Source of the DNA: an uncultured Thermotogae bacterium
GTDB taxonomy: Bacteria > Thermotogota > Thermotogae > MWEM01
NCBI GenBank assembly: GCA_963667315.1
Contig: OY763325.1
Span: 363,378 to 427,377 of the forward strand
Direction: 5' to 3'
DNA length: 64,000 bases
The notes below the pieces were generated by a model. The model had not been told where the DNA came from. It made no database searches and saw only the letters and a program-made list of their open reading frames with translations. The position numbers were made by a program, and so were the translations under genes. Below are positions 6,334-47,248 of this stretch, one piece after another (positions within the stretch are counted from its first letter, which is position 1; the number at the start of each line of letters is the position of its first letter).

Positions 6334-6362
6334 AAAAAAGACAGGGTTTTTTACCCTGTCTT
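6331..6362. terminator. intrinsic terminator hairpin (mainly for the minus-strand lysine operon)
   Basis: gacagggt-ttttt-accctgtc stem-loop at 6340-6360, flanked by an A-run at 6332-6339 that gives a U-tract on the minus strand. Confidence 0.6.
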
Positions 6363-8690: not shown

Positions 8691-8692
8691 TC

Positions 8693-9391: not shown

Positions 9392-10052
9392 TGTCGATTT
9401 CCTCCATTTCCATATGACAGATTTGATCGAATGTATAAAAACCCTGATTGAGACGGATTATTCTTTCAGCGGCAAAACAGGCACCTTCTGCAAACGTTCT
9501 GGGAGAGATGGCCTGATGTTTGATCTCAATCATCTCACCCAAACCGGCGATTAATACTGAGTGTTCACCCGGGATACCTCCTGCTCTGATACTTGAAGTA
9601 GGAACATCAAAATCAAAGCACTCTGCCAGCATCTTTGCCGTTCCGGAGGGTTTGTCTTTTTTAAATCTATGATGTTTTTCGATGATTTCTATATCCCAGT
9701 CAGATATTCTTCCCGACAACCCTTTAATGATCTCTTTCATGATCAATACACCTTTTGAAAAATTTCTGGCGTAAACGACACTCTTTTTCGTTCCATAATC
9801 CTTTAAACGCTGAATATCCTCAATATTCAAAGCGGTTGTTCCCACTACAAGAGAACAGTTAAATTTTTCTGCCATAACCATTGTTTTGTTAAAAGCTTCA
9901 GGAAGTGAAAAATCTATGAGTACTTCAGGCATCCCGATTTCGTCTTCCGTGTTCATGTCACATTTATATACAAGTGTATGGCCTCTTTCTGAACAGACTT
10001 CCTGAATCAATTTACCCATTCGTCCGGAATATCCCATCAAACCATATTTCAT
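9384..10052 (-). CDS. dapB: 4-hydroxy-tetrahydrodipicolinate reductase
   Basis: 222 aa; N-terminal Rossmann motif [14 protein letters not shown]; typical short DapB. Confidence 0.9.
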
Positions 10053-10939
10053 TCTTCATCACCTAATCTTTGCATCTCCAGGTCAATTAAATCTTTTAAT
10101 TCATCCGAGGCTTCCGTTAAAGGCAATCTTAAGACATTTTCGCAATATCCGAGTTTTGAAACGGCATATTTTACAGGAATAGGATTAACATCCTTAAAGA
10201 GAAGAGTCATAAAGTTCAGGTACTTTTTCTGTATTTTTCCAGCTGTCTTAAAATCTCCGTTTAATGACAGCATTATCAACTTATGCATAATATCCGGGAA
10301 GACGTTTGAAAAGACCGATATTACACCATCCCCTCCAAGACTGATTAATGGCAGTGCCTGATCATCGTTACCGGAATATAATCTCAACCCTTCCGGTTTC
10401 ATTGATGCGAGTCTTGTCATCTGAGAGATATCACCGCTGGCTTCTTTTATACCAATGATTTTTCGGCAGTCTTTATAGATTTTTATAACGGTTTCCGGAA
10501 GTAAATTAACACCCGTTCTTGATGGAACGTTATAAAGAATGGAAGGGAGGTTGGTCTTATCATCTATCATTTTAAAATGTCTGAAAAGTCCTTCCTGACT
10601 TGATTTATTATAATATGGTGTGACAAGTAACAAACCATCCGCCCCGAGTGTTTCAGCACTGAGGCTCCATTCAATACATTTTTCCGTATCGTTTGTTCCT
10701 GTCCCGGCAATGACCGGAACCCTTCCGTTAACTGTGTCAACAACTGTTTTGATAATCAAGTCCCTTTCTTTTTCTTTAAAAACGGGCGCTTCACCGGTAG
10801 TGCCAAGAACAATGATTGCGTCAACTTTTTGTCCTATCTGGAACTCACAAAATCGGCTTAAAGCGTCATAATCCACTTCGTTTTTTTCATTTATTCTCCG
10901 CATTGGCGTAATTATTGCGGTACCGACACCTTGAAACAT
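10049..10939 (-). CDS. dapA: 4-hydroxy-tetrahydrodipicolinate synthase
   Basis: 296 aa; GVGTAIITPM N-terminus, GTTGE motif and active-site Lys region (IIGIKEASGD) of the DapA/NAL aldolase family. Confidence 0.9.
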   Translation of the reverse strand: MFQGVGTAIITPMRRINEKNEVDYDALSRFCEFQIGQKVDAIIVLGTTGEAPVFKEKERDLIIKTVVDTVNGRVPVIAGTGTNDTEKCIEWSLSAETLGADGLLLVTPYYNKSSQEGLFRHFKMIDDKTNLPSILYNVPSRTGVNLLPETVIKIYKDCRKIIGIKEASGDISQMTRLASMKPEGLRLYSGNDDQALPLISLGGDGVISVFSNVFPDIMHKLIMLSLNGDFKTAGKIQKKYLNFMTLLFKDVNPIPVKYAVSKLGYCENVLRLPLTEASDELKDLIDLEMQRLGDEE

Positions 10940-10941
10940 GT

Positions 10942-11931
10942 TTATCCACCTCCGTTTATCCTGTGATGTTCCAATAATATTCTGACTGCATTTGTAGCAG
11001 CTCCAACTCTTATGTTATCCGCAACGACCCAAATCATAAAGGTATTTTTATCCATCTTTCTGATTCTGGAGATATATGTAGTATCTGTACCGGCTGCATC
11101 TATGGGGGTTATCAACTCTTCAGAACAAATTACACCCGGTGTTTTTGAGACCTTTTTGATAAAGGTTTCCTTATCGATATCTTCCCTCAATTTGATCAAC
11201 ACTGATTCACCATGAGAATATCTCGTCGCGACTCTTGCTGTAAAGGGATAAACTGTTATAGACTCATCCCTGAAAATCTTTCTCGTTTCATTGACCATCT
11301 TATAATCTTCGTTACTGATTCCGCTATCATCTTCTATCGCCCCGATTAACGGGATGACATTTTCTGCTATTTGTTTTGGGAAAACGGCGTTCTCCTGATA
11401 GATTTCTTTTCCTTTTGCCGATAATTCGTTATCATACACATTCAAGGCCTTTTTCCCAGCTCCCGAAATTGATTGATAGGTTGAAACGACAATCTCGTTT
11501 ATTCCGAATTCACGAAGCCCGTTCAATGCAAGAACCATCTGTATCGTTGAGCAGTTTGGATTTGCGACGATTCCACTGTAGTTTTTCAGAAGATCCCCGT
11601 TTATTTCCGGAACAACAAGCGGGATTTCTTTTAAACTTCTGAAGGCAGAAGAATTATCTATTATTGTATTTCCTACCTTTGCAGCAACCGGTGAAAATCT
11701 TTTGGAAGTTCCACCACCTGCAGAAAATAGCAGATAATCGTATTTTTCCTTCATGACATCATCCGTTAGTTCTTCGACTATATATTCTTTTCCGTTAAAT
11801 TTTAATTTTTCTCCTTTCGATCTGGCGGACGCAAATACTCTCAGTTCCTTTACCGGTACCTTGTATTCCTCCATAACCTTTAACATCATTCTACCTACTT
11901 CTCCAGTAGCTCCTGCAACACCAATTTTCAT
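10942..11931 (-). CDS. asd: aspartate-semialdehyde dehydrogenase
   Basis: 329 aa; MKIGVAGATGEVG NAD-binding N-terminus and the catalytic-Cys region (ANPNCSTIQMV); first gene of the operon, GGAGGTG RBS upstream. Confidence 0.9.
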   Translation of the reverse strand: MKIGVAGATGEVGRMMLKVMEEYKVPVKELRVFASARSKGEKLKFNGKEYIVEELTDDVMKEKYDYLLFSAGGGTSKRFSPVAAKVGNTIIDNSSAFRSLKEIPLVVPEINGDLLKNYSGIVANPNCSTIQMVLALNGLREFGINEIVVSTYQSISGAGKKALNVYDNELSAKGKEIYQENAVFPKQIAENVIPLIGAIEDDSGISNEDYKMVNETRKIFRDESITVYPFTARVATRYSHGESVLIKLREDIDKETFIKKVSKTPGVICSEELITPIDAAGTDTTYISRIRKMDKNTFMIWVVADNIRVGAATNAVRILLEHHRINGGG

Positions 11932-12054: not shown

Positions 12055-12225
12055 AATACCAACCGACGCTCCACGAATTTCGTGACAGTAATATGAGTAT
12101 TTCTCATATTCCCAGGAATACATTTCTTTTGGGGGAGATTTGTATCCTTCGGTGATCTCGCCTTTCGATCCGAACGTTCCCCGTTTCATGTTCAGACTTA
12201 CTGATCTCGACCACGCCTCCGATTA
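12055..12225 (-). promoter_or_regulatory. lysine riboswitch (L-box) aptamer in the asd operon leader
   Basis: Minus-strand sequence carries the conserved L-box blocks in the correct order: GGAGGCG ... GAAACGGGGAACG ... CACCGAAGG ... CUGUCACG ... UGGAGCGUC (compare B. subtilis lysC leader AGAGGUGC ... GAAAGGGGAGCG ... GCCGAAG ... CUGUCAAG ... UGGAGGGCU). Confidence 0.75.
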
Positions 12226-12253
12226 TTATATTCAATTTTCAAACGCACCATTC
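12225..12253 (-). promoter_or_regulatory. putative promoter of the riboswitch-asd operon (-10 TATAAT)
   Basis: TATAAT on the minus strand at 12230-12225, a few nt upstream of the riboswitch 5' end; no convincing -35 hexamer. Confidence 0.35.
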
Positions 12254-29329: not shown

Positions 29330-30682
29330 TTATAAATAATTTTCCTGTATGATCTTTTTTAAATACCCGATAACATATAACGAACCTGTAATAAGTATCG
29401 GTGCATCGAGTTTTCTTGATAGCTCAACAGCTTTTTCACAAGCCTTTATATGTTCCGGTTCATAATGTACATCATGAGCGTCCCTAATCTTTTTATAGGC
29501 ATCAACAATTAATCTGGTATCCGTTTCCCTTGGTGCATTGGGTTCTGTTACGATTACTTCCTTTGAAATGGATGATAGCTGTGATGTCATAAAAGCGTAA
29601 TCCTTTCCACTGAGCATTCCTGTTAGAAGGACAGCTTTTTTTTCTGGGAAATAAATGTTCCAGTTTTTGATCAATGCTTTAATTCCTTCCGGATTATGCG
29701 CGCCATCAACGATAACAGGGTTTTTCTCAGTTTCGTTCAGTACCTCAAATCGTCCGGGCCAGTATGCCTTCTTTAATCCTTTTCTCAATGCGTCAATATC
29801 CGGATCTATGGTATTTTTCTCACAATAGGCAAGATAAGCCATGATGGCTGTTGATGCATTCTGGAATTGATGAATACCGTTCATTGTTAATTCTATATTA
29901 TCTAAAGTTAAATTTTCAGAATGGAAAGTGAAGCGATTTGAATTGATCTGATTGCTGAGCGCTTCGAAAGAATAATCCCTGTTCACGAGATACATTTTTG
30001 CGTTTTTTTCATTAGCAACATGCGCAATGATTTCAACGGCATCCTTTTTGGTTGTTCCGCAAACCAGTGGCACTTCTTCTTTGATAATGCCTGCTTTTTC
30101 AGCTGCAATCAAAGGTATCGTATCCCCAAGAGTTTTGGTATGATCGAGACCTATTGAGGTGATGATGGTTACATCGGGTGTGAGTGCTGTTGTGGCATCC
30201 AGTCTTCCACCGAGTCCAACTTCCACTGCTGCCACATCTACTCTCTTGTTTTTAAAATATTTAAATGCCATTGCGGTTGTACATTCAAAAAAGCTGGGCT
30301 TCATTTCATCGGATTGAGCATCCATTATGGCAACTGCTTCACTAAGTTGATTGGCTACGGTTACAATATCTTCATCACTGATCATTTCGTTGTTGAATGT
30401 AATTCTTTCATTGAATTTTACCAAATGCGGTGAGAAATTTGCCCCTGTTCTGAGCCCAAGTGTAGTGAAGATGGTAGATAATATTCTTGTGACAGACCCT
30501 TTTCCGTTTGTTCCCGCAACCTGAATGGCTTTGAAAGAATTTTCGGGATTTCCGGCATTTCTCAACAAGGTTTTAATTCTTTGAAGACCAAGCTTAATTG
30601 TTCCATGTGGTCTGGATTTAAAAAAATACTGTAATGTATCATCAATGTTTTCAAATTTTATGATTTCAATTTCTTTTTTCAT
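29330..30682 (-). CDS. folC: folylpolyglutamate synthase / dihydrofolate synthase
   Basis: 450 aa; Mur-ligase P-loop VAGTNGKGSV, folC-type overall pattern. Confidence 0.85.
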   Translation of the reverse strand: MKKEIEIIKFENIDDTLQYFFKSRPHGTIKLGLQRIKTLLRNAGNPENSFKAIQVAGTNGKGSVTRILSTIFTTLGLRTGANFSPHLVKFNERITFNNEMISDEDIVTVANQLSEAVAIMDAQSDEMKPSFFECTTAMAFKYFKNKRVDVAAVEVGLGGRLDATTALTPDVTIITSIGLDHTKTLGDTIPLIAAEKAGIIKEEVPLVCGTTKKDAVEIIAHVANEKNAKMYLVNRDYSFEALSNQINSNRFTFHSENLTLDNIELTMNGIHQFQNASTAIMAYLAYCEKNTIDPDIDALRKGLKKAYWPGRFEVLNETEKNPVIVDGAHNPEGIKALIKNWNIYFPEKKAVLLTGMLSGKDYAFMTSQLSSISKEVIVTEPNAPRETDTRLIVDAYKKIRDAHDVHYEPEHIKACEKAVELSRKLDAPILITGSLYVIGYLKKIIQENYL

Positions 30683-30984
30683 TTATTTTTGAACCCTCCA
30701 AGTTGATATACGTAAACTATTACCTCCGCAACTGCTTTATAAAGTTCAGGAGGTATTTCAGAATAATAATCCAGTTCAAGAAGCTTTTCCACGAGCTTTT
30801 CATCAGAGTAAATAGGAATATCATTTTCAATGGCAATCTCAACAATACGCCGTGCAAGTTCTCCTTTTGCCTGTGCAATCAGTCGAGGGACAGGCCCTGC
30901 CTCAGGGTCATATTTTAAAGCTGCGGCTTCTGTTATCTCATCTTCAAGTATATTCTTTCCAAATTGATTTTTTTTAGGTGTCAT
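30679..30984 (-). CDS. FlhB C-terminal-domain-like small protein (EscU/YscU/FlhB cytoplasmic-domain homolog, YlqH-like)
   Basis: 101 aa; PVPRLIAQAKGELARRIVEIAIENDIPIYSDEKLVEKL matches the conserved core of FlhB/YscU C-domains; no TM region and no NPTH autocleavage site seen. Confidence 0.65.
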   Translation of the reverse strand: MTPKKNQFGKNILEDEITEAAALKYDPEAGPVPRLIAQAKGELARRIVEIAIENDIPIYSDEKLVEKLLELDYYSEIPPELYKAVAEVIVYVYQLGGFKNK

Positions 30985-33584
30985 GCCAGTTTAATAAACC
31001 CTCCATCTCTTTTGTTATCGGTATACAGCTTCACTTTATGTTTAAGGATATCATTTTGATTAGCTTTTTCGCGGATTAAAAGACTTCTTAGCTTATAATC
31101 GGTTTCTTTTATTCTTTTAGAAAGAACCGACGAGTGATTGGTAAATTCACCGGTATGTTCCTGCCCGGCATATATATAGATATCAAGATTTTCACCGCTG
31201 ACAATCGTATCAATAAATACATTTCCAAACCGCTGAGTATCTGTTTCAATATAAACCCTGTACATTTCGGTTTTATCATAACCGCTTTTATTGACACTCT
31301 GCTTTTGAAAATCAACGGCAAACGGTTGCCCGTTAAAGTTCAATAATGCAGAGTATACATGATTGAACTCGTTTTTATCTGAAGTGATGTTTAACATTTT
31401 TAAAAGTTTTTCGGAATTGATTTCATTTTTTTCGGATAAACCCGACTGCAAAGGTTTATCTTCTGTTGTTTTTAACTTTGAATCTAAAGTAGTTTCTTGC
31501 GTTGTTCGATCATCTTTTATTACCGGTGATTTTTCCTGATCAGCGGCTGCTATATTATTTTTAAGTGTAATGGCTTCTTTTCCTCTTGCATTTAGGGATT
31601 TTGATTCTTCAAGTGTATTGACTATCTGTTTCTTTTCTGATGATGAAAGATTGGCAGCTATTTCTTTTGGCAGCTTTGTTAATTGTTTGGTTTCTTGATA
31701 TGGATCATTCTTGATTTGGGAGTTCTTTTCCAAGCCCGCGCTTTTAGAGGTCGTTTCCTGTTTCATTTCCGCTTGCGTATTGGTGTCCATTTTTCTTTGA
31801 CTCTGTGAAGGAGAATTTCTATTTGAATCCGTATCATCCGGTGATGAAATTAATTTTTGAACGAAATCTTTAACAATAATATACGCTTTCTGTGAAAAAG
31901 ACTGTATTCTTGAAATTAAAGATCTTTCATCTGATTGGGCAACTTTGTTGTCAATAATCAACTGAGGAAGTTTAAGTTTAAGGTAGTTTTTTAAAGAATT
32001 GGGGAAAATATTCTGAGCCGTATCCGGTTCTTTAAATGATCTGACAGCTATATTGACAATATCATTTGCGATTAAGACGGTTTCTTTTGGTGGAATACCG
32101 AGTCCATTCAACTGACGCAGTATATTTTTAATCTCAAACTTCAACATAGGATCATTTTTAATGGTTTCAAAGGAGAATTCCTTTGAGATTAAACGCGAGA
32201 AAACTTCTCGGTTTATCTTGATGGACTCAAAATTAATCTGCTCCTCATTTCCCGCTTTTACAAGTTTATTGAGGACAGTCAAGATATTTTTATCCTCAAG
32301 TGGCAGATTATTCTGTTTAATGGTTTCTTCCAATCTTAAATGGAGAGGATGAGTCACTTTTTCTGTTAATAAAGGAGACGTATTGCCCGATATTTTGAGA
32401 GATTCAAATTTTTCTGAGATATGATTTAAGTTTTCATGATTTTTCTCAAGATTTATAGGCTTGCTGATTAGCTCTTTCAAAAGGCCTTTCAATTCGTTAA
32501 CAGTGTTTTTAATCAACTCTTCTTTTGATGCGGGGTCTGTCTGAGTCGATTGATATTTTACATTGAATATGTGTTTGGAAACTGTGCCGGTAATTTGTTT
32601 TTGAATACGGTTCTTTTCCGTATTCACTGTATTTGATGTCTGATTTTCCTCTTGAATCACTGCCTTACCCGTAAAGGTAGAAGGCGGTTGTTCTTTGTTT
32701 TCAACCATTCCTTTGTTTGATGATGTTTTATTTAAAGAGAATGATGGTTTCAAAAGGGTTTCAGAGGCATTTTGAGCAGTCTGTTTGATAACGTTTTTAT
32801 GGGGAAAAGGCTTATCAAAAGAGGGTTTATCTTTTGGCTCAATCAACTTGGAGTCTGAAGATTTAATCTTTTTATCAGAATGATTCCCTTTTTCAGATTC
32901 ATCCTGTATATTTTGCAAAAGAACCCCAGATTCCTTTTTACCGGAATCGGATAGGATCTCAGTTTTTTCTGAATCCCCTTTTAATATTTTTTTGAAATCA
33001 AAGAGAACAAATTCCTTGATGATTTCCTTTTTAATCTTGTCAGGTATATAATCCCATGCCTTGCCCATTGCCTTTGCCTTCAATGAAATTTCTATCAGGC
33101 GTCTGTTAAACGGAAGACGTGAATCATATAAATCGAAGGCATTTTTTGTGTTTTCTACACTCTCTTTTATTTCAATATTAAAATCCTCTTTCAGAATGGA
33201 TTCAGCAAGGTTGGAAATTTGATTCGAGACATGAGCAAATCTCATTTTTTCCGATTGTGGCATTTTATTGATTAAGGTTTCCAACTCCTGTGAAGTCTTA
33301 AACGGTAACGATAGAGAATAGACGTCTATCAGCTTTGCACCGATTTTCTTTAATACTTCACTTGAAACTTCTTGGGGAAGATCTTTACCAAAAAAAACTT
33401 GTATCATATCACCGGTTTTAATCTTTCCGACATTTCCGGGCTCTATTTTATATACTTTATCCTTTATTAAAACCTGTATTTCCTTCCCGTTTTTGGAAAT
33501 AACTTTACCGAGTTGGGCTTCTCCTTTAGTTTTAGAATCAGCCTTTTTTATGTTAATCGGGATTGATATTTGTGAGATATTCAT
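30981..33584 (-). CDS. large protein with FliK-like (hook-length-control type) C-terminal domain
   Basis: 867 aa; the C-terminal approximately 100 aa (FAVDFQKQS ... RFGNVFIDTIVSGENLDIYIYAGQEH ... LSKRIKE) follow the alternating-hydrophobic pattern of the FliK C-terminal domain; stop overlaps the start of the FlhB-like gene (ATGA). Confidence 0.45.
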   Translation of the reverse strand: MNISQISIPINIKKADSKTKGEAQLGKVISKNGKEIQVLIKDKVYKIEPGNVGKIKTGDMIQVFFGKDLPQEVSSEVLKKIGAKLIDVYSLSLPFKTSQELETLINKMPQSEKMRFAHVSNQISNLAESILKEDFNIEIKESVENTKNAFDLYDSRLPFNRRLIEISLKAKAMGKAWDYIPDKIKKEIIKEFVLFDFKKILKGDSEKTEILSDSGKKESGVLLQNIQDESEKGNHSDKKIKSSDSKLIEPKDKPSFDKPFPHKNVIKQTAQNASETLLKPSFSLNKTSSNKGMVENKEQPPSTFTGKAVIQEENQTSNTVNTEKNRIQKQITGTVSKHIFNVKYQSTQTDPASKEELIKNTVNELKGLLKELISKPINLEKNHENLNHISEKFESLKISGNTSPLLTEKVTHPLHLRLEETIKQNNLPLEDKNILTVLNKLVKAGNEEQINFESIKINREVFSRLISKEFSFETIKNDPMLKFEIKNILRQLNGLGIPPKETVLIANDIVNIAVRSFKEPDTAQNIFPNSLKNYLKLKLPQLIIDNKVAQSDERSLISRIQSFSQKAYIIVKDFVQKLISSPDDTDSNRNSPSQSQRKMDTNTQAEMKQETTSKSAGLEKNSQIKNDPYQETKQLTKLPKEIAANLSSSEKKQIVNTLEESKSLNARGKEAITLKNNIAAADQEKSPVIKDDRTTQETTLDSKLKTTEDKPLQSGLSEKNEINSEKLLKMLNITSDKNEFNHVYSALLNFNGQPFAVDFQKQSVNKSGYDKTEMYRVYIETDTQRFGNVFIDTIVSGENLDIYIYAGQEHTGEFTNHSSVLSKRIKETDYKLRSLLIREKANQNDILKHKVKLYTDNKRDGGFIKLA

Positions 33585-33618: not shown

Positions 33619-34011
33619 TCATAATGCGGGGTTTCTGAAAATATCTTCCAGGCGTTCCCAGTTTTTACTGAGAAAAAGATACCCGATCAATGTTTCAAAT
33701 GCAGTAGCATATCTGTAGTCAATATCATTGCCTCTTTTTTTTGCACCCTTTGAATTTAATCCCTTTTTTACGATTTCTTTTTCTTCTTTATTTAACCTTT
33801 CCATACAATCTTCCAATAATTGTTTTTGACCGGATGCACGTTTTAATTCAACCCCACGACGGTTTGCCAGGATGGTTTTTGTCCTGCCGTCTTTTATCGA
33901 CAAAAAAGTTGCGATGAGATTAAAAAAGGAGTCCCCAATATACGCATAGATATCCGTAGGGATTTCATTTTTATTTTTTACAATTTTATCGAAATCAAAA
34001 AGACTTTCCAT
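33619..34011 (-). CDS. mrnC: Mini-ribonuclease 3 (Mini-III)
   Basis: About 130 aa from the internal MESLFDF start; RNase III catalytic signature AYIGDSFFNL and conserved C-terminal ATAFETLIGYLFL. The ORF-track N-terminus (to 34083) would overlap pilT and is probably not used. Confidence 0.75.
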   Translation of the reverse strand: MESLFDFDKIVKNKNEIPTDIYAYIGDSFFNLIATFLSIKDGRTKTILANRRGVELKRASGQKQLLEDCMERLNKEEKEIVKKGLNSKGAKKRGNDIDYRYATAFETLIGYLFLSKNWERLEDIFRNPAL

Positions 34012-34018
34012 CGTTGTA

Positions 34019-35092
34019 TTAATATCTGAATGTTCCAAATTTTTTCCCCACTTTTTCGGTATCCCTGCAATATTGCATGACACTTTCTTTTGTTATCAAT
34101 TTGTTTTCATATGCCTCGATTAAAGCATCATCAAAGGACTTCATCCCAAACTTTTTCCCCGTTTCCATCAGCGTTCCTATCTGATGAAGTTTCTGTTCTC
34201 TGATCAGATTTCTGACGCCGGGTGTTGCGAGCATGATTTCAGCAACAGGAAAAAAACCCTCGTCGTCAGCTTTTCGGACTAAACGCTGATATAGAACACC
34301 AATGAGAGAATTAGCGAGCTGTAGTGTAATCTGTTTTTGCTGATGAGCCGGAAAAACATCGATAATTCTTTCCGGTGCTGTTGGCGCGGAATTTGTATGA
34401 ATGGTTCCGAATACAAGATGTCCCGTTTCTGCTGCTGTCAAAGCGAGTGCCATCGTATCAAGATCCCTCATTTCTCCCACGAGTATAACATCCGGATCCT
34501 GCCTCAAGGCGTATTTCAATCCGTCTTTAAAAGAGTCGGTATCCAATCCGAGTTCCCTTTGATGAACAAGTGCTTTCTTGCTTTCAAATATATATTCTAT
34601 CGGGTCTTCTACGGTGAGGATATGAACATTTTTGATCATGTTGATATGTTCAAGCATCGCTGCCATAGAAGTTGATTTACCACTTCCGGTGGGACCTGCA
34701 ACGAGGATCAGTCCGCTTTTTTTCTCGCTCCATTCTTTTAATACAGCGGGTAGTTTTAGCTCCTCAAGTGTTCTGACTTTCTTTGTGATAATTCTGAAAG
34801 CGGCAGCTGGATTTCTTCTTTCGTAATAAATGTTCGCTCTGACACGAATGACATCCTTAATTCCGAATGAAAAATCAAGTTCTTTCTGTTCACCTTTTTT
34901 AAGATTAATTTTTTCATAAAGGTATTCAAGGCTTTTTTCCAATTCCTCTTTGCTAAAGATCGGAACATCCTGAAGGCGCTGTAATTCACCAAAGACCCTG
35001 TAAACAGGGTGCTCGCCAACAGAAAGATGCACATCTGATGCATTAAGTCTGTGTGCATGATAAATAAGTTTTGGTATATCAATAATTGCCAT
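34019..35092 (-). CDS. pilT: type IV pilus retraction ATPase PilT
   Basis: 357 aa; PilT N-terminal signature ASDVHLSVGEHPVYRV, Walker A GPTGSGKST, Asp box, Walker B DPDVILVGEMRD, His box GHLVFGTIHT. Confidence 0.9.
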   Translation of the reverse strand: MAIIDIPKLIYHAHRLNASDVHLSVGEHPVYRVFGELQRLQDVPIFSKEELEKSLEYLYEKINLKKGEQKELDFSFGIKDVIRVRANIYYERRNPAAAFRIITKKVRTLEELKLPAVLKEWSEKKSGLILVAGPTGSGKSTSMAAMLEHINMIKNVHILTVEDPIEYIFESKKALVHQRELGLDTDSFKDGLKYALRQDPDVILVGEMRDLDTMALALTAAETGHLVFGTIHTNSAPTAPERIIDVFPAHQQKQITLQLANSLIGVLYQRLVRKADDEGFFPVAEIMLATPGVRNLIREQKLHQIGTLMETGKKFGMKSFDDALIEAYENKLITKESVMQYCRDTEKVGKKFGTFRY

Positions 35093-35096
35093 ATAA

Positions 35097-35960
35097 TCAC
35101 CTCAAGATTGTTAGAATTTCACCTGATTTTAATCCGCTAACCAGAATTAAATCATCTTTTCTCTCGATTATTTCGACAGTTATAAGTGTCCCATCAGCTA
35201 ATCGAACGGTAGAATCAATCAGGTATTCAATCGGAATCCACGCCAAATCGTCGCTATGATAACTGATCTGAACTTTTCCATAAAGAAAATCTAAATTAGC
35301 ACTGTTGATTTCTTCAAGTTTCAGAGGAATTTTAATGAGTAAATCACTTTGCTGTTCTTTTATATCATCAGGGTTAATCATCATTTTGATGTTCTCAGGC
35401 TTAATTTCAAGGCTGAGATATTCAGCTCTTTGAATAAAATTTCTGTCATTTTGAGTATAGACTAAATACATTTCACTGTCAGCTTCAATCAGAGAAAACA
35501 AAGTTGTTCCTTTTTCAGTAAACAGATTTTCACGCGCCTTCATTCCAACAATATATCCATCAACGGGAGAGATCACTTTGGTATTCGAAAGTTTCTTTTC
35601 GGCAAGGGCGATCGCCTTTTTCTTTTCGTCCTGAATAGCACTTCCGGAATTCAAAACGGCCATTGCATATTCATTTCTTGCTTTTGACAAAAGGAATTCT
35701 TCTTCATCACTTTCGAAGTTCATCAGAATGGAACCTTTATGTACAAAATCTCCTCTTTTCACATATGTTCTTTCAATGAAATCATCGTTAGCTGCTTTAA
35801 TCTCAACGGTTTTGTTGAATTTTATCTTTTCCTCAAAAGAATAGACTTCCAATTTCTTAAAAGTAGATACTTCGAATTGAGAATCCTGATTAAAATAGAC
35901 GATGGAGATGATAATGGATACGATGATGAAGATACCAAAAAATACCGGGATTTTTTTCAA
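35097..35960 (-). CDS. single-pass membrane protein with HlyD/membrane-fusion-protein-like fold (tentative)
   Basis: 287 aa; N-terminal TM (IPVFFGIFIIVSIIISIVYF), biotinyl/lipoyl-like hairpin (VKRGDFVHKGSILMNFES), coiled segment, beta-barrel-like VISPVDGYIVGM. No cognate transporter adjacent. Confidence 0.45.
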   Translation of the reverse strand: MKKIPVFFGIFIIVSIIISIVYFNQDSQFEVSTFKKLEVYSFEEKIKFNKTVEIKAANDDFIERTYVKRGDFVHKGSILMNFESDEEEFLLSKARNEYAMAVLNSGSAIQDEKKKAIALAEKKLSNTKVISPVDGYIVGMKARENLFTEKGTTLFSLIEADSEMYLVYTQNDRNFIQRAEYLSLEIKPENIKMMINPDDIKEQQSDLLIKIPLKLEEINSANLDFLYGKVQISYHSDDLAWIPIEYLIDSTVRLADGTLITVEIIERKDDLILVSGLKSGEILTILR

Positions 35961-35971
35961 ATTTACACCTC

Positions 35972-38485
35972 TTAAACGGGAAGACCAATACGCTTCATGA
36001 AATCTTCCAATTGCATAATCATGGCACCGGAATTTCTGGCTATCGGTTCTAAATGTTTATAACTATCATCAAATATAGCGATATCCGGTTTGTATGCCAA
36101 CCCATCCCGGAGTTCAAATCCAAGCATTTTAGACATCATTTCAATTTTTAGCCAGTTTTCCTCATTCTCTGTTAACACCGATATGATCTTTCCCGACAAA
36201 AGATTTTCTTCATCCTGTGCATCATTGCTTTTTGGATCTCCTAGAGTGTCTTGAAGGGTATCTTCTCTTCGTTCTTCATTTCCGGGAAGGTTCGTCGATC
36301 GGTTCACTTCTGTTGAATGGGAATCTAAATCATTGCGTTCAGAAGGCATATCGGAATCCGAGGAAAAATTATTTTTTATTATTTCAAAAATTTCCCGATG
36401 TGCGATATCTTCTTCGGAACTGTCTTTATTTTCAAGCGTTGGTGGCAGCGTTTCATTTATTACAAAGTTTCTATCTTTATCCGTTGCGTCAATATTTGTG
36501 TTCTTATTTAAAGCGAAATTTTCCTCTTCTTGTATATCGGAATCTTCAACGATAAGACCTGCGAGTAAAGAATCTTTCAAATTATCATAGTCGCCACCTG
36601 ATACTGTATCCGCGATATGAGCATCTTTCTGTTCGCTGTCCGCTTTTAACGTTTCTGACAACTCATGTGAACTTTCCTGATTCATTATCAAGGTGTCAAG
36701 CGAATGTATTGCTTCTGCTGCTTTATCACCGGTCTTTGCTACTTCAGCCTTATCACTGTCGGAGTGGGCTTCAGTAGTCTTTATTGCTGTTTCCTCGTTT
36801 TTTACACCATTTTCTTTTTTATTGAGAAGCTTTTCATCTACTTCGGTCAATAATGCTGCATCAATATCCTCCCTTAATCGAGAATATTCTTTATGACTAC
36901 AGACAGGATTTCTTGTAATGATACTGTTTTCACCCTCTGTGTTTATGATAAACAAGTCGGTTTTTTCAATCTTTGTGAGGAAATGACTGAATGCTTCATC
37001 TGTTGAGTGATGTGAATAGTATCCCGAATCGACGATCGTTGAATCAAGAATTCTGATGAGATAATGGATTTCTTTTTTGTTTAAAGTTTTTATATCAATT
37101 ATTCTTAATTTATGAAGCGAATCGTGAGGTATTTTTGGCTTTTCAGTTGAGCTAGTCTGTTTTTGCTGATCTTTATTATTTTCATTAACGATCATGGAAT
37201 CGAGGAATTTTAAAGGTTCGGAGGGTTCTATTTTTTTCTTTTTTCTCTCTTTTTCTATTCGACTGTTGCTTTTTTGGTCAGTAAATTTGTCTGTGTTGGT
37301 TTTCTTGTTCATTTCTATTTCATTTTTAGATGCTGTTATGCTGTCAATCGTTTCATTTTCTTCTTCTTCTTCTTCTTCTTCTGTTTTTTCCGGAATCGGT
37401 GAATCTGCGATTATCTGTGTCTCTTCATCTTGTGGTGGCTTTTTTGGGGCCTTTTTGTTTTTGAGAAATTTGGTATCGTCCGCTTCGTGCTCAGCTTTAA
37501 TTATTTTTTTCAGAGCTTCTATTTCCCCTTCTGATAGGAAAGAATAGTTTTCCCGAACCAAAATGTCAAAACTCATTGCAGGTGACTGTTCCCCTTCTTT
37601 TTCTATTTGCTGCCTGATTATCTTTAGATCAAGCCAATTTTCGGGGTAAAAACTGATAAATTCAGAACCCGTTATCGGTGAGAATTTATAAACTTCCTGC
37701 ATTAATTTCTGAAGAGCTTCAAAATCAATTGAGGAGAAAAAAACTTTATAAGCTCTTGTTTTTTCAATTTCTTCTTTTGTCAGGATTAACTTGCCGGCTT
37801 CTTGCAAAAGAAGAGAAAAAGCGGTTGTAATAATATTTTCTGCCTCTTCTTTTTTTAGTTCTTTAGCAGAATTGGTAAACATCATCTTTTTTACCTTTTT
37901 ACTCTCTGTATCATCAATATTTTGAGAGATCCCGAAAATATTTAGGATTTCATCACTCATAATTACATTTGTTTCTGGAACTAAAAATCTGCAAAGGTTT
38001 AGCATTATCGGCATATTTCTTGAGCCGTCATCAAATCGAACCAGAGGGGACAATTTCCTTTCAATCTCCGATTTTAGGATGCTGAGATTGACCTCACGAG
38101 AACCTGAAATCTCCTGAAGAAATTGATAGGTTTGATTTTCGTTTGAAAGGTATGACATCACGTTTAATTGACTTTTTATCAATCTGTCAAATAGATCACC
38201 ACGCAGAAAAACATAATCACCGTTGCTGTTCGTGCCGGTAAGTATGAGATCCAATTCCGATTTTTCAACGAGTTCTGCGATCCATCTTGACAAAATATGC
38301 TGGAGTTCTTTATCTTTGATACGGAGTTTGTTAATGATGTCTTTGGATGTGAACTTATCTTTTAATGATTCGGTATATCTCCTGACTAATTGTGCGTATT
38401 CTTCATTAAGTGTTAAATTTTCACTTGCATCGAATCTGATGTTTTCAGGTGCTGAATTTTCTTTCTTTTTAAATAAATTCATCAT
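35972..38485 (-). CDS. hypothetical large acidic protein (poly-Glu tract)
   Basis: 837-aa ORF directly upstream of the HlyD-like gene and pilT; D/E/K-rich with an E8 run; no enzymatic motif recognised. Confidence 0.65.
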   Translation of the reverse strand: MMNLFKKKENSAPENIRFDASENLTLNEEYAQLVRRYTESLKDKFTSKDIINKLRIKDKELQHILSRWIAELVEKSELDLILTGTNSNGDYVFLRGDLFDRLIKSQLNVMSYLSNENQTYQFLQEISGSREVNLSILKSEIERKLSPLVRFDDGSRNMPIMLNLCRFLVPETNVIMSDEILNIFGISQNIDDTESKKVKKMMFTNSAKELKKEEAENIITTAFSLLLQEAGKLILTKEEIEKTRAYKVFFSSIDFEALQKLMQEVYKFSPITGSEFISFYPENWLDLKIIRQQIEKEGEQSPAMSFDILVRENYSFLSEGEIEALKKIIKAEHEADDTKFLKNKKAPKKPPQDEETQIIADSPIPEKTEEEEEEEENETIDSITASKNEIEMNKKTNTDKFTDQKSNSRIEKERKKKKIEPSEPLKFLDSMIVNENNKDQQKQTSSTEKPKIPHDSLHKLRIIDIKTLNKKEIHYLIRILDSTIVDSGYYSHHSTDEAFSHFLTKIEKTDLFIINTEGENSIITRNPVCSHKEYSRLREDIDAALLTEVDEKLLNKKENGVKNEETAIKTTEAHSDSDKAEVAKTGDKAAEAIHSLDTLIMNQESSHELSETLKADSEQKDAHIADTVSGGDYDNLKDSLLAGLIVEDSDIQEEENFALNKNTNIDATDKDRNFVINETLPPTLENKDSSEEDIAHREIFEIIKNNFSSDSDMPSERNDLDSHSTEVNRSTNLPGNEERREDTLQDTLGDPKSNDAQDEENLLSGKIISVLTENEENWLKIEMMSKMLGFELRDGLAYKPDIAIFDDSYKHLEPIARNSGAMIMQLEDFMKRIGLPV
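37358..37381. repeat. (TTC)8 / (GAA)8 trinucleotide repeat encoding the E8 run
   Basis: Perfect 24-nt TTC repeat on the + strand, inside the 837-aa coding region. Confidence 0.9.
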
Positions 38486-42099: not shown

Positions 42100-43778
42100 T
42101 AAATCTGCTCCATCTTCTGTGGTGCATCAACTCCTATAAGAGAAAGTGCATCGGCAATAACGGTTCTGACACCAATGGCAAGGTTCAATCTTGCATTTGA
42201 AGTCTGTGCATCTTCAGGATTGACAAATACGTTCGAGTTGTAGTATTGATGGAACATAGCGGCTATATCATGGATATAATTTGTCAATTTGTGAGGCGAA
42301 TTGGTACTGATCATCTCATATAAGCTGTCGACATAAAGCAGAAGGTCCCTAATCATAAGGTTATCAGCTCTTGAACCAAGTTTTTCAAGATTTTCCCCTC
42401 TTTTGAACGCAATGCCTTTTCTCTCAGCATTTTCAATCAAACTACAGATTCTTGCATGAGCGTACTGAACATAATAAACAGGGTTTTCCATCGACTGACT
42501 CTTGGCAAGATCGATATCAAAAATAAGTTGTGCATCCTTATCTACCATGGCATAGAAATATCTCGTTGCATCTTTCCCTACCATCTCAACGAGTTCGTCA
42601 AGCGTTGTAAAAGTTCCCGCTCTTGTTGACATCTTGACAATTTCGCCACCTTTTTTCAATGATACCATTTGATGAAGAATCACGTTGAAAAAATCATCTT
42701 CAATACCAAGCGCTTTCATGGCGGCTTTCATTCTTGGAATATGCCCGTGATGATCCGCGCCCCATATATCAAAGACTTTTCTGAATCCTCTTTCACGCTT
42801 TTTATAATGATTGGCAATATCTGTAAAGAAATACGTAGGCATACCGTCTGATCTGATTAAGACTTTATCCTTTTCGTCGATAAATTGTGAAACCTTTAGC
42901 CAGAGTGCCCCATCTGATTCATAAACAAGATCGTTATCGGTAAAATATGCTTTAACTTTGTCAACCGTACCGTCCGTGAAAAGAGATCCTTCTGAAAAAT
43001 AAACATCAAAGACGATACCGAGTGTTTTTAACGTGTTTTTAATGTGGTCAAACATTTCATCTTTAGCTTTTGCAAGACAGTCGGCGTCTGCTTGCTCATT
43101 CCATATGTTTTTATACTTTTCTCCAACTTCTTCCCGGAAATCCTTCGCCAGATCAATGATATAATCTCCGTGATAGCCACCTTCAGGAATTTCATTCTCG
43201 ATTCCGAAAAGTTCATTGTAACGAACCCATAATGACCTGGATAGTTTCTTCATCTGTTTTCCCGCATCGTTGAAATAGTATTCCCTGGTAATCTGATAGC
43301 CAAATCTTTTGTATACCGAAGATAGTATATCGCCAATAATTGCCTGTCTCCCGTGACCAACGGTTAATGGTCCCGTTGGATTCGCGCTGACAAATTCTAT
43401 CTGAACTTTTTCGTTTTTTCCGATATTGTATTTAAAATAGTCAGCGCCTTTCTCAGCGTTCAGTATTTCAAGGAGTTTTTGTGTATAAAACTCAGATTTG
43501 AGAAAAATATTAATAAACCCGGGACCGGCAATTTCTGTTTTCTCAACGGCCTGATTTTTTTCAAGTTCTTCGGTTAGTTTTTCTGCAAGTTTTCTCGGAG
43601 CTGTCTTTGCTGACTTTGCACATACCATCGCAGCGTTTGTTGAAAAATCCCCAAAATCTCTGTTAGGCGGAACCTCCACTCTGATTCTTGAAGCAGCATC
43701 TTCAATTCCAATTTTCACAAGACTATCGTTTACGATGTCCGTTAACCAGTTTTTCATCATTTTTGCCAATTCATTCAC
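42099..43778 (-). CDS. argS: arginine--tRNA ligase
   Basis: 559 aa; class-I HIGH-type motif region SANPTGPLTVGHGR and ArgS-type N-terminal and anticodon-binding domains. Confidence 0.9.
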   Translation of the reverse strand: MNELAKMMKNWLTDIVNDSLVKIGIEDAASRIRVEVPPNRDFGDFSTNAAMVCAKSAKTAPRKLAEKLTEELEKNQAVEKTEIAGPGFINIFLKSEFYTQKLLEILNAEKGADYFKYNIGKNEKVQIEFVSANPTGPLTVGHGRQAIIGDILSSVYKRFGYQITREYYFNDAGKQMKKLSRSLWVRYNELFGIENEIPEGGYHGDYIIDLAKDFREEVGEKYKNIWNEQADADCLAKAKDEMFDHIKNTLKTLGIVFDVYFSEGSLFTDGTVDKVKAYFTDNDLVYESDGALWLKVSQFIDEKDKVLIRSDGMPTYFFTDIANHYKKRERGFRKVFDIWGADHHGHIPRMKAAMKALGIEDDFFNVILHQMVSLKKGGEIVKMSTRAGTFTTLDELVEMVGKDATRYFYAMVDKDAQLIFDIDLAKSQSMENPVYYVQYAHARICSLIENAERKGIAFKRGENLEKLGSRADNLMIRDLLLYVDSLYEMISTNSPHKLTNYIHDIAAMFHQYYNSNVFVNPEDAQTSNARLNLAIGVRTVIADALSLIGVDAPQKMEQI

Positions 43779-44112
43779 CTTTCCTTTTACTGATCAATCC
43801 GAATTCTATATTTTTAAACTTATATCTTTCTTTGTACTTTTCATCAACCACTATCTCATAGATCTCAACCGATAGTTCTTCAGATATCCGATAAGTTCTT
43901 ATGGGTAACAGATTGTTGTCGATAACATACAATTCCTTATGCGTAAGTGCACAAGTTATTTTATTTCTTAATTTTATTATATCAGATGAATCCACTCTTC
44001 TGACATTGAGAACTTCTATTCCTTTAAATAAAGTCAGCATACAAATAGAAACTATCAAGACTGATATTATCATATCTACAAGGATAAAAAAAGCCGCTCT
44101 CTTTTTTATCAT
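43771..44112 (-). CDS. hypothetical small membrane-anchored protein
   Basis: 113 aa; one N-terminal TM helix (AAFFILVDMIISVLIVSICMLTLF); overlaps the Hsp70-like stop and the argS start. Confidence 0.55.
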   Translation of the reverse strand: MIKKRAAFFILVDMIISVLIVSICMLTLFKGIEVLNVRRVDSSDIIKLRNKITCALTHKELYVIDNNLLPIRTYRISEELSVEIYEIVVDEKYKERYKFKNIEFGLISKRKGE

Positions 44113-46136
44113 AGGAAATCAATGATGTTGGAATAACTTATTTTTTCAATCTGTTCTTCGATAAGCCTTTCAAGTTTCTTCTTGTTAGAATCCAGTATAT
44201 TGTTAGCTTTTTTTGTCAACTCTTCTCTATTCTGATTTAGAGAAGTCCTTAAAGACTTGTCAGAACGTCTGATAATCGCTTTTTCATTGATCATAAGTGT
44301 TTTTAACAGCCATTTTGGTATCCGCATATTTTTAATTCCCTTTGTCATCTTTTTTTTGAACCCTGCCATTGATGCGAATAATATCGTGATTGATCCGATA
44401 AATACCGTTAACCAGGCGATTGGTCCAAAAAAACTTGGGATTAAAATGGTGGATCCAAACAACGAACTTGTCACAATGCTGACGATCAAAGATGAGAGGG
44501 TGGAGAGTCGAAGGAATAACGTTTCGCTGATAGCTTCAAGATCATTTTCAGAAGAAATTCGATCCGCGCCGGTTAATAAACCTTTCTGTGCAAATTCAAA
44601 TTTGATCATCGATTTATTAAACCATTTACTCAACTCATTTTTTGTTTTATTTTCGATAAGAAAATTAACCTCGCTCATAAAACCGGAAGTTGTGTTCTCA
44701 ACCATCACTTTTTGTTCTTTTACGGCCTCTTTTAGTGATATTTCAAATTCGTTCAACGTACCACTGTTCTCAAAGAAATCGGTGATTGTTTTTGATACAG
44801 CAGGTTTGTAAATATCAAACAGTCTGTCAAAATAATTGTTAAGACTGCTGTTGAATATTTTTTTGTACGCTGTTTGAAGTTTAGTGATGAGTTCACTTTT
44901 TGTTTCTCTGAGTTCATTCCGAACCTTTTCTTCATATTGTCTTGCCGAGTAACAAAGACCCAATCCTCTACTGATCGTTGCTTCAGGATCGGCAGATGAG
45001 ACGATTCGTGTATATGGGAATTCGTCAGAAATCATATCCATAAAGAATTGCCATCGACTGCTTCCCCCCGTCAGTATAATTAATGATACAGAATCTTTTG
45101 TTATATTAAATTCTTTTCCGCTGCGTTGTATCTCGTTTTTAAGCGTTTCTATCAGATTGATCTTCCCTTCTTTGATAAGTCCGGAAAAATCTGATAGTCC
45201 CGCCATATCTCTTATCATCTCATTACTCGGAATATACTCTTTCATCCTGTTAAAAATAAAGTCATCACTTTCTATGAAAAAGGATCCGAATGAAGAGGTG
45301 GCGAAAGTGACGTTTTCGCGGAAAGCGTTTTTCATAGAAGCTGAAAGCAACGAAGAATATTTTTCTTTCAGATTTTTAAAATAAACCGTTCTCAGATAAC
45401 CGTCCAATCCCTCATCTTCTATCTCTTTTCTTATTCCTTTGTTCTGTTCGAGAAAGAGATTATAGAACAAATCGTCAAACAGGACCCCACCAATCACCGG
45501 GGATCCCCATACCTTTTGAATCCTGAAATTCTTCAAATAGGCGAAATCCAGGGTTCCACCTCCAAAATCAACAACGAGAACCCCTTTAGAGGCATCCTCT
45601 TTTGTAATATCTTTACGATTCAGATGATAGAACAATGCACCAAGTGGTTCCTCTATAAGAACCGGATGTGAACCGGTAGATTTCTCAAGAATAGAAGACA
45701 TCAGACTGACATGGTCTTTCACGGTTTTTGACGGAATTCCACAGGTTAATGCGTAGTGTTTTGCGTCGCTGATATCAGAAATCAGTTTTTGTCTGTAGAG
45801 CGTATTGAAGAGCACCGTTAAAAACATCTCCGTTTCAGTCTGTGCACGTTTGTTAAATGCCAACCGCTGTTTAAAGCCGCTGCCAAGCGTGAAGCGCTTC
45901 TTTTCACTTTTATTCATGGAATACCATTCTTCAATTGCCGGTTGTCCGAATCCGATGATTTCAAACGTCCTCTCATCATAAAGTATAACGGATGGGATTG
46001 AGGAATTTGAATTGATCTTGACATCATCGACTATCGGATTACTGTCGCCTGAAGTTGAAAGACTCAGATGGGTATTGGATGTACCGAAATCAAGACCGTA
46101 AATCTGTTTTAAATCTTTATTTAGTGTATGCATCAT
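44109..46136 (-). CDS. Hsp70/actin-fold ATPase lacking a canonical substrate-binding domain, with two C-terminal TM helices
   Basis: 675 aa; phosphate-1 GLDFGTSNT, phosphate-2 VLVVDFGGGTLDF, adenosine motif ILTGGSSR at Hsp70-like spacing; then a coiled region, hydrophobic hairpin LSTLSSLIVSIVTSSLFGSTILIPSFFGPIAWLTVFIGSITILFASMAGF and a basic tail. Confidence 0.7.
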   Translation of the reverse strand: MMHTLNKDLKQIYGLDFGTSNTHLSLSTSGDSNPIVDDVKINSNSSIPSVILYDERTFEIIGFGQPAIEEWYSMNKSEKKRFTLGSGFKQRLAFNKRAQTETEMFLTVLFNTLYRQKLISDISDAKHYALTCGIPSKTVKDHVSLMSSILEKSTGSHPVLIEEPLGALFYHLNRKDITKEDASKGVLVVDFGGGTLDFAYLKNFRIQKVWGSPVIGGVLFDDLFYNLFLEQNKGIRKEIEDEGLDGYLRTVYFKNLKEKYSSLLSASMKNAFRENVTFATSSFGSFFIESDDFIFNRMKEYIPSNEMIRDMAGLSDFSGLIKEGKINLIETLKNEIQRSGKEFNITKDSVSLIILTGGSSRWQFFMDMISDEFPYTRIVSSADPEATISRGLGLCYSARQYEEKVRNELRETKSELITKLQTAYKKIFNSSLNNYFDRLFDIYKPAVSKTITDFFENSGTLNEFEISLKEAVKEQKVMVENTTSGFMSEVNFLIENKTKNELSKWFNKSMIKFEFAQKGLLTGADRISSENDLEAISETLFLRLSTLSSLIVSIVTSSLFGSTILIPSFFGPIAWLTVFIGSITILFASMAGFKKKMTKGIKNMRIPKWLLKTLMINEKAIIRRSDKSLRTSLNQNREELTKKANNILDSNKKKLERLIEEQIEKISYSNIIDFL

Positions 46137-47248
46137 CTTACCTTCCTGACTTTGCCCCTGATGACTGTATTTCCAGCGGAATCTACCCAGGCATGATAAA
46201 GCTGTTGTACTGTATCTCCCTCGGAAATAATACCAAAAGTATCAAAGTATTTTTTTTCGTCTTCAGTGAAAGGGAAGACATCTTCTCTATCTATGGGCTT
46301 TATACCCTGTGATTCCAATGCGTTTATAAAACTCTTTGCCGAGATAAGCGCATCCTGTGCGTTATCGCTTTCTGATGCTGTATATAATTGCTGCATTGAA
46401 GGGATTATCTGTTTCGAAGAGACAAGCGAAACGGGAATTTTATGATCCGCTTTAAACTGATCTTCAGGTATCCTTTTCATGATAAGATTTTCAGAGGGCT
46501 TTTCAAAAAGAATCTCATTGAGTTTTTCACCAAAAAGCCGGATTTTGTTTTCAACAAAAACTGTAATCTGGCTTTCAAGTGCTTTTTTTATTTCAACTCT
46601 GTTTTTTATCTTTACAGGTTTGAATATATGAAGCATCCAGAAAATCATAAAAGTGATGATTGCAGCCAATAGCCATTGAACAAAATTCAACTTATTCTTA
46701 CCAAAAAAAGAACTGCGTATATTCGAAAACACGGTACCGATTGTAAGGGTTGCAAACCCAATAACTGCAGCCCATTTAATCGTTTTGGCAATCTTCGGAT
46801 GTCTGATAGCTTTTGAAAAAAGCCATACAAATAACCAGGCACCTATGGGCATACCGATCAGGGCAGCATGATAGTCACTTTTGAAAAAACCGCCAATCAG
46901 AGAATAAAATAACCAGCCGAAAAGAACGGCACCGATAGCAGCGGGGATCCCCAGGCGTTCGAATTTCCTGAATTCAACCGTATCGGAAGGAAGATACAAA
47001 TAATCCAATTCGGAAATATCGGAAAATTCCCCGGTCGAAATCTCATATTTAATTCTGTTTTTTCTTTCAAAATCAGTTTCGTCAACTTTTTGTTCTATTA
47101 AGTCATCCAGTAGATCTTCAAAGAGTACACGGGTTGAATTCTTTTTTATGGATGCTTTTATTTCATCGAGAGAGCCATTAAAATCAACATCGGTAATACG
47201 ATTTATATATTGATCTTTTAATTCCGTATTTAAAATATTCATTCTCAT
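46133..47248 (-). CDS. polytopic membrane protein with GrpE-like C-terminal domain (tentative)
   Basis: 371 aa; about 100-aa N-domain, four predicted TM helices, then a C-terminal region ending YHAWVDSAGNTVIRGKVRKVR, which resembles the GrpE C-terminal motif GYxLxDRVLRPAMVKV; stop overlaps the Hsp70-like start (ATGA). Confidence 0.4.
   Translation of the reverse strand: MRMNILNTELKDQYINRITDVDFNGSLDEIKASIKKNSTRVLFEDLLDDLIEQKVDETDFERKNRIKYEISTGEFSDISELDYLYLPSDTVEFRKFERLGIPAAIGAVLFGWLFYSLIGGFFKSDYHAALIGMPIGAWLFVWLFSKAIRHPKIAKTIKWAAVIGFATLTIGTVFSNIRSSFFGKNKLNFVQWLLAAIITFMIFWMLHIFKPVKIKNRVEIKKALESQITVFVENKIRLFGEKLNEILFEKPSENLIMKRIPEDQFKADHKIPVSLVSSKQIIPSMQQLYTASESDNAQDALISAKSFINALESQGIKPIDREDVFPFTEDEKKYFDTFGIISEGDTVQQLYHAWVDSAGNTVIRGKVRKVR

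Follow-up and report, generated by a model that had tools for sequence, protein, structure and literature searches.

A canonical pilT and two clade-restricted neighbours in a compact gene string of an uncultured Thermotogae bacterium

We analysed a stretch of 64,000 nucleotides (nt) of DNA from an uncultured Thermotogae bacterium (contig OY763325.1, positions 363,378 to 427,377), in the following called the window, with respect to the gene of the pilus retraction ATPase PilT and the three genes that closely surround it. An earlier note on this DNA had described the four genes as an embedded, co-transcribed-looking set and had offered two explanations: a non-canonical module powered by PilT or simply an orphan pilT. 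The open reading frames (ORFs) are given below in the order of their transcription, with protein lengths in amino acids (aa).

35972 to 38485, minus strand: gene of an 837-aa acidic protein (ORF call).
35097 to 35960, minus strand: gene of a 287-aa membrane-fusion-like protein (ORF call, TTG start).
34019 to 35092, minus strand: pilT, 357 aa (TIGR01420, Pfam T2SSE, PDB 2ewv, five motifs).
33619 to 34011, minus strand: gene of a Mini-III-type RNase, 130 aa when counted from the ATG (Pfam Ribonuclease_3, AYIGDSF and ETLIGYL motifs).

The junctions between these genes were read directly from the DNA. A spacer of 11 nt (gaggtgtaaat) separates the TAA stop codon of the 837-aa protein gene from the TTG start codon of the 287-aa protein gene. 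The latter gene ends with TTG AGG TGA, after which 4 nt (ttat) precede the ATG of pilT. Between the TAA of pilT and the ATG of the Mini-III gene there are 7 nt. The four minus-strand ORFs and the gaps of 11, 4 and 7 nt that the earlier note had listed were thus found exactly as described.

Judged by its sequence, the 357-aa protein belongs to the PilT/PilU family and is a canonical retraction ATPase of type IVa pili. It matches TIGR01420 with 450.2 bits (cut-off 319.1), residues 6-345 aligning to positions 2-341 of the 343 positions of the profile, and Pfam T2SSE at an E-value of 4e-46. The best relative of solved structure is PilT of Aquifex aeolicus (PDB 2ewv, E 6e-93). All canonical motifs had been said to be present, and five were located: the Walker A motif (GPTGSGKST, residues 133-141), the Asp box (TVEDPIEY, residues 160-167), the Walker B motif (DVILVGEMRD, residues 201-210), the His box (TGHLVFGTIHT, residues 223-233) and the PilT-specific motif of the AIRNLIRE type (GVRNLIRE, residues 292-299). 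The protein is 59-62% identical to the PilT proteins of Thermotoga and Pseudothermotoga. With its full-length TIGR01420 match and the complete set of catalytic and PilT-specific motifs it resembles PilT of Aquifex aeolicus (2ewv/2gsz) as well as TM1362 of Thermotoga maritima. Like TM1362, the pilT of the window stands alone amid housekeeping genes.

Within the 64-kb window PilT is the sole T2SSE-type ATPase that we found, and no N-terminus resembled that of a prepilin. When most of the other large ORFs of the window were scanned with Pfam, no pilus families were returned; the matches pointed to transporters and lysine biosynthesis, to sugar and amino-acid enzymes and to a hybrid histidine kinase of large size. 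The absence of other pilus genes from the window, as it had been noted before, therefore holds.

To place this isolation in context we scanned relatives of PilT, taking one genome per species. This provided 80 loci, of which 42 were from Thermotogota, 1 was Thermotogota-like but binned as archaeal, and 37 served as outgroup. ORFs were called in all loci and searched with the proteins of the window and with hidden Markov models (HMMs) of their families. None of the 42 Thermotogota loci carries a further T2SSE ATPase at a distance of up to 10 kb from pilT, whereas 29 of the 37 outgroup loci do. At 23 of these 29 loci pilT is preceded, at a distance of under 400 nt, by the end of a long pilB-like gene. 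For Thermotoga the pilus and competence genes have been described as dispersed over the genome: pilB (TM0837), pilC (TM0094), pilQ (TM0088/TM1117), pilD (TM1696), pilE (TM1271) and pilT (TM1362) (PMC5637354). According to a review, Thermotoga possesses type IV pilus genes and carries type IV pilus-like envelope structures or machines on its cells (PMC12024867). An orphan pilT is thus the rule among the sampled Thermotogota, an arrangement that is already documented for the phylum, such that the simpler of the two explanations given by the earlier note is the one backed by the comparison.

The genes that flank pilT differ between groups. In Thermotoga, Pseudothermotoga, Fervidobacterium and Thermosipho the order is ileS or dnaX, then pilT, then prfA, while Mesoaciditoga has the order pilT, prfA, Mini-III. 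In the clade of the window, pilT is instead flanked by the gene of the adaptor-like 287-aa protein and by the Mini-III gene. Genes of both upstream neighbours occur at the loci L007-L012, L014-L017 and L087-L089, whose PilT proteins are 66-96% identical to that of the window. In the Thermotogota outside this clade no homologue of the 287-aa or the 837-aa protein was detected within 10 kb of pilT (hmmsearch, E <= 1). Co-occurrence with pilT, which had been suggested as a check, was hence observed for both neighbours in a single clade and nowhere else among the sampled genomes.

This clade is collinear over a block of about 20 kb with the order argS, mnmE, nuclease gene, HAD gene, 837-aa protein gene, 287-aa protein gene, pilT, Mini-III gene, 867-aa protein gene, flhB-like gene, folC, ispA and 971-aa protein gene. 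Collinearity extends to relatives whose PilT is only 66% and whose 837-aa protein is only about 22% identical. Since the adjacency of pilT and its neighbours lies within a collinear block of unrelated genes, it is no argument for a common function. Where rearrangements can be seen, they fall inside the proposed module. At L013 (PilT 80% identical) pilT, the Mini-III gene and the 867-aa protein gene are kept, while rsmG and a glutamate dehydrogenase gene (gdh) are located upstream; neither the 287-aa nor the 837-aa protein gene was found on this contig. At L015-L017 a gene of a methyl-accepting chemotaxis protein directly precedes the 287-aa protein gene, and at L017 this chemoreceptor gene sits between the 837-aa and the 287-aa protein genes. 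The idea of a module powered by PilT is therefore not supported by the comparison: its additional members are confined to one collinear clade and the set is broken at L013.

Two further observations concern the sampled loci themselves. At a distant clade member (L089, 1-6434) dnaA, yidC and jag are found at a distance of a few kb from the block argS to pilT, which places it near the replication origin, and the genes upstream of argS differ from those in the window. The locus binned as archaeal (L049, WUQU01000267.1) is a 1.7-kb contig labelled 'Candidatus Bathyarchaeota archaeon', whose PilT is 62% identical to that of the window; this label is probably due to contamination of the bin.

The 287-aa protein has one N-terminal hydrophobic, putative transmembrane segment (residues ~4-23), which is preceded by MKK only. 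With about 4 cytoplasmic residues in front of the membrane segment, nearly all of the protein should face the periplasm. Its scores against the curated families remained below the cut-offs, just so for Pfam HlyD_D23 (29.7 bits, cut-off 30) and clearly so for TIGR01730 (49.5 bits, cut-off 94.9). A profile built from 11 family members and compared with PDB matched LipC, EmrA, MacA and AcrA at 1e-6 to 1e-4, covering both halves of the lipoyl-type domain. The AlphaFold2 model, which was obtained from a shallow alignment of 4 sequences and lends weak support, was poor (predicted local distance difference test (pLDDT) score of 57) and contained predicted helices at residues 86-104 and 108-124. When this model was searched against PDB with Foldseek, the top 25 matches were all adaptors (E 1e-6 to 8.5e-3, 21 of 25 at E <= 1e-3), among them CusB, MexA, AcrA, ZneB, MacA and BesA, at TM-scores of 0.2-0.3 and the said pLDDT of 57. 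In the predicted layout the transmembrane segment is followed by a barrel-sandwich or lipoyl-type domain, into which a short hairpin of helices (~86-124) is inserted, and the C-terminus forms a beta domain.

An N-terminal anchor, a split barrel-sandwich and a beta domain are likewise found in the adaptors of tripartite efflux and type I secretion systems (CusB, MexA/AcrA, MacA, EmrA, LipC, BesA and, in monoderms, the YknX type), and the profile and fold matches fell exclusively into this class of periplasmic adaptors. In contrast to efflux adaptors, the 287-aa protein is short, its hairpin measures only about 2 x 18 residues, it scores under the curated cut-offs, its gene has no adjacent RND, ABC or MFS pump gene, and its family is confined to one Thermotogota clade, always upstream of pilT. 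According to profile and model, the protein is thus membrane-fusion-like by fold and lies outside the curated families, in agreement with what had been proposed from the sequence. No resemblance to PilN, PilO, PilP or GspC was seen by sequence or by fold, the fold matches being all efflux adaptors.

The 837-aa protein has an isoelectric point of 4.83, contains 20% aspartate plus glutamate and carries a run of eight glutamates (E8) at residue 369 as well as KKKK at residue 415; the acidic character and the E8 run had been recognized before. It had no match in Pfam, NCBIfam, PHROGs or the PDB sequences, and the comparison of its family profile with the PDB sequences yielded nothing under an E-value of 0.6. 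Searching 1.84 billion representative sequences with the profile provided a family of only 18 proteins at E <= 1e-3. The AlphaFold2 model, based on 20 sequences, shows three confident regions that are linked by long disordered stretches: tandem winged-helix-like domains (residues ~22-335), a disordered linker of acidic and basic residues (~337-460) with the E8 run encoded by (GAA)8, a winged helix with a long helix (~465-555), a disordered acidic region (~556-761) and a small BRCT-like alpha/beta domain (~762-835). The units in regions 22-335 and 465-555 have the succession helix-strand-helix-helix-strand-strand, which is the winged-helix pattern, and Foldseek matched the model to the tandem-winged-helix protein UFL1 at 2.8e-4. 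The predicted structure of the C-terminus matched many BRCT domains with probabilities of 0.97-1.0 and deviations of 2.2-3.5 Å over 72-78 residues. Pfam BRCT gave an E-value of 0.03 and 15 bits on the last 77 residues, under its cut-off of 21.3.

In its predicted tandem winged-helix units the 837-aa protein resembles multi-winged-helix scaffolds such as UFL1, ESCRT-II, ScpB and TFIIIC tauB, and the predicted beta-alpha-beta-beta-alpha-beta-alpha order of its C-terminus is similar to that of BRCT domains as in LigA, XRCC1, PARP4 and TopBP1. The model is best described as a cytoplasmic scaffold in which acidic, disordered linkers connect winged-helix and BRCT-like parts. Such a fold suggests nucleic-acid or protein docking rather than pilus mechanics. 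Neither this protein nor the 287-aa protein showed similarity to alignment or platform proteins of type IV pili (PilM/N/O/P, PilC, GspC), and PADLOC and PHROGs scans of the two returned nothing meaningful. A second ground on which the module proposal loses support is therefore structural: the adaptor-like protein would be periplasmic, as opposed to the cytoplasmic PilT, and the model of the 837-aa protein contains no pilus-related fold.

At the DNA level the E8 run is a perfect (GAA)8 microsatellite (window positions 37358-37382), which reads as TTC on the plus strand. Four glutamates (E4) occupy this position in the 833-aa protein P0014 of a metagenomic strain with 97% identity, such that the run is length-polymorphic within the disordered linker.

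Downstream of pilT, the RNase matches Pfam Ribonuclease_3 with 45.5 bits (cut-off 27) over residues 46-140 of a 154-aa reading and has no other domain. This longer reading would start at an alternative GTG at 34083, which overlaps pilT; relatives have about 130 aa. No NCBIfam model matched the protein at E <= 0.01. As in Mini-III of Bacillus subtilis (MrnC), the protein consists of a single RNase III catalytic domain of ~130 aa and has no dsRNA-binding domain. B. subtilis Mini-III functions in the maturation of 23S rRNA. The catalytic domain on its own and the gap of 7 nt agree with the earlier assignment of a Mini-III gene behind pilT. Mini-III follows pilT in every clade relative for which downstream sequence is available. 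Its link to pilT is positional only, and in Mesoaciditoga prfA intervenes between the two.

The four genes are numbers 9-12, by ascending coordinate, of a much longer run of genes on the same strand:

22674 to 47248, minus strand: run of 19 genes, 24.6 kb, delimited by ORF coordinates and family assignments.
First to seventh in order of transcription, minus strand: 371-aa transmembrane protein, 675-aa Hsp70-like protein, 113-aa protein, argS, mnmE, TM0106-type nuclease, HAD-IIA phosphatase.
Next, minus strand: 837-aa protein, adaptor-like protein, pilT, Mini-III.
Last, minus strand: 867-aa protein, FlhB-related protein, folC, ispA-like gene, 971-aa protein, 410-aa protein, NUDIX protein, glycosyltransferase.

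All gaps within the run are at most 40 nt and many neighbouring genes overlap by 1-8 nt, in one case by 29 nt. As this tight spacing is shared by all 19 genes, the co-transcribed look is not special to the four. Of the description as an embedded set the tight packing can thus be kept, while its distinctiveness cannot. A terminator scan found no convincing intergenic terminator on the minus strand, and scans for consensus promoters and terminators gave no usable operon boundaries. The run is probably a polycistronic string of functionally unrelated, mostly housekeeping genes.

Three other proteins of the run were considered as pilus or flagellar components and rejected. The 113-aa protein (43771-44112) has a hydrophobic N-terminus, yet as a pseudopilin it lacks a motif of the G-F-T-L-x-E type and it has no family match. 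The 675-aa protein (44109-46136), a candidate for PilM, matches the Hsp70/HscA/ParM fold only and has a C-terminal transmembrane region. For the 867-aa protein, a candidate for FliK given the FlhB-related gene that follows it, no Pfam match was obtained, including its C-terminal 143 aa.

Some features of the surroundings are recorded here in addition. The 867-aa protein gene overlaps the gene of the 101-aa FlhB-related protein by 4 nt (window positions 30679-33584). The latter protein scores 83 bits with TIGR00789 (cut-off 117) and 62 bits with Pfam Bac_export_2, and the order Mini-III, 867-aa protein, FlhB-related protein is kept wherever the contig reaches far enough. Upstream of argS (43771-47248) there are three overlapping genes, encoding the 371-aa protein with multiple transmembrane segments, the 675-aa protein with its Hsp70/actin fold and the 113-aa protein. 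The Hsp70-like protein has a weak PADLOC match to LeoBC (1e-6), and its gene was found only in the closest relatives (L001-L007). Outside the run, the minus strand carries a lysine riboswitch (Rfam RF00168, 81.7 bits) at 12056-12229, upstream of an operon with the order asd, dapA, dapB, dapH, aspartokinase gene and aminotransferase gene (6361-11931). A 1455-aa hybrid sensor kinase is encoded at 1119-5486, also on the minus strand; it contains 12 Reg_prop repeats, Y_Y_Y, HisKA, HATPase, receiver and Hpt domains.

Taken together, we consider an ordinary orphan pilT in a compact string of housekeeping genes, with neighbours that are lineage-specific and share no machine with it, to be the best explanation, at a probability of roughly 75%. 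As a member of its family, PilT would form a hexameric ATPase in the cytoplasm and dock on a platform of the PilC type, whose gene would lie elsewhere in the genome; by depolymerising pilins it would serve twitching, the turnover of adhesion or the uptake of DNA. The 287-aa and the 837-aa protein genes would be lineage-specific additions to the gene string: the former may encode a membrane-anchored adaptor that faces the periplasm and whose partner, if any, would be encoded elsewhere, the latter a lineage-specific cytoplasmic scaffold. Mini-III would act as an RNase in rRNA maturation. A shared transcript would be expected from the way in which long strings of unrelated genes are packed in Thermotogota genomes, and the adjacency of pilT and its neighbours would come from descent within a collinear clade rather than from a shared machine.

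Several points weigh against this explanation. Two of them concern the scope of the comparisons: the search for pilus partner genes covered the 64-kb window alone, and the Thermotogota sample was driven by peptide patterns and contains no Petrotoga, Kosmotoga, Mesotoga or Marinitoga. The others concern the gene of the adaptor-like protein. The run of 19 genes contains no transporter gene (RND, ABC, MFS) that could accompany it; MATE and MFS genes occur only at a distance of more than 12 kb, beyond the run, and the closest gene of an ABC ATPase lies ~3 kb past the run's other end. All family members with readable context, at ~15 loci, are located immediately upstream of pilT, including members of only 26-30% identity. 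Moreover, the stop codon of the gene sits within the Shine-Dalgarno sequence of pilT (GAGGTGA). The resulting junction (window positions 35090-35105), AGAGGTGA followed by 4 nt and ATG, is kept in 12 of 13 relatives, and its conservation accounts for the invariant C-terminal arginine of the protein family. At L013, where the adaptor-like gene is missing, pilT has a different Shine-Dalgarno sequence. The conserved junction indicates that the co-expression of the adaptor-like gene and pilT has been maintained, and from its sequence the adaptor-like gene is probably translationally coupled to pilT.

The points on the adaptor-like gene would be accommodated if the adaptor-like protein and PilT were a true functional pair. 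The former would then be a lineage-specific periplasmic part of an envelope complex for pili or DNA uptake and, in the manner of PilP or GspC, would connect the secretin in the toga with the platform of the inner membrane; translational coupling would set a fixed ratio to PilT. The persistence of the junction despite the divergence of the protein, the lack of a nearby transporter gene, and the adjacency to pilT that holds at L015-L017 despite the chemoreceptor gene directly upstream are all in agreement with such a pair. However, the evidence for the link comes wholly from one collinear clade: the adjacency is found only in genomes with the 20-kb block and the instances are hence not independent. 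L013 has pilT and the Mini-III gene without the adaptor-like gene, and Thermotogota outside the clade carry pilT without a nearby homologue. The missing similarity to PilN, PilO, PilP and GspC speaks against the proposed role as well. Since about 4 residues of the adaptor-like protein would reach the cytoplasm, where PilT resides, direct contact of the two is disfavoured and any link could only be indirect. A literature search that paired pilT with HlyD returned nothing relevant. We regard a functional pair as unlikely. A related and rather doubtful version is that a truncated efflux-adaptor-like protein was co-opted in this one Thermotogota clade as a periplasm-spanning accessory for pili or DNA uptake that is translationally coupled to PilT; the 837-aa scaffold may then serve as a cytoplasmic docking or DNA-handling partner.

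It is also conceivable that PilT is joined by both upstream neighbours in a module for the uptake and handling of DNA, in which the 837-aa scaffold receives or organises DNA that is pulled in by PilT-driven retraction; the TM0106 RecB-like nuclease encoded two genes upstream might join. Arrays of winged helices and a BRCT-like fold are typical of scaffolds that bind DNA or phosphoproteins, the genes are co-oriented and tightly packed, and in Thermotoga PilT is counted among the competence genes (PMC5637354). We consider such a module very improbable.

We know of no case in which PilT acts without a pilus platform. A recruitment of PilT outside the pilus, e.g. for powering another envelope process in a lineage without remaining pilus machinery, is highly unlikely, even though no pilus partner is seen in 64 kb and pilT lies amid housekeeping genes throughout the phylum. 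GVRNLIRE and the other PilT-specific motifs are completely retained in a protein that is 59-62% identical to Thermotoga PilT, and Thermotoga genomes carry pilB, pilC, pilD, pilQ and pilin genes elsewhere (PMC5637354).

Should the adaptor-like protein turn out to be a co-opted accessory after all, toga-bearing bacteria would possess a set of accessory components for pilus retraction that is new to pilus biology, which would be of moderate interest to specialists. The locus foremost calls for caution: same-strand strings of Thermotogota mix unrelated functions and their pilus genes are scattered, such that an isolated pilT with abutting neighbours should not be taken for a new machine. Each of the two neighbours belongs to an uncharacterised family that is restricted to this clade and made up of known folds. 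Worth keeping are an ORFan family of large acidic winged-helix/BRCT-like proteins, of which 18 sequence clusters are known, and a transporter-less adaptor-like gene whose stop codon is built into the ribosome-binding site of pilT.

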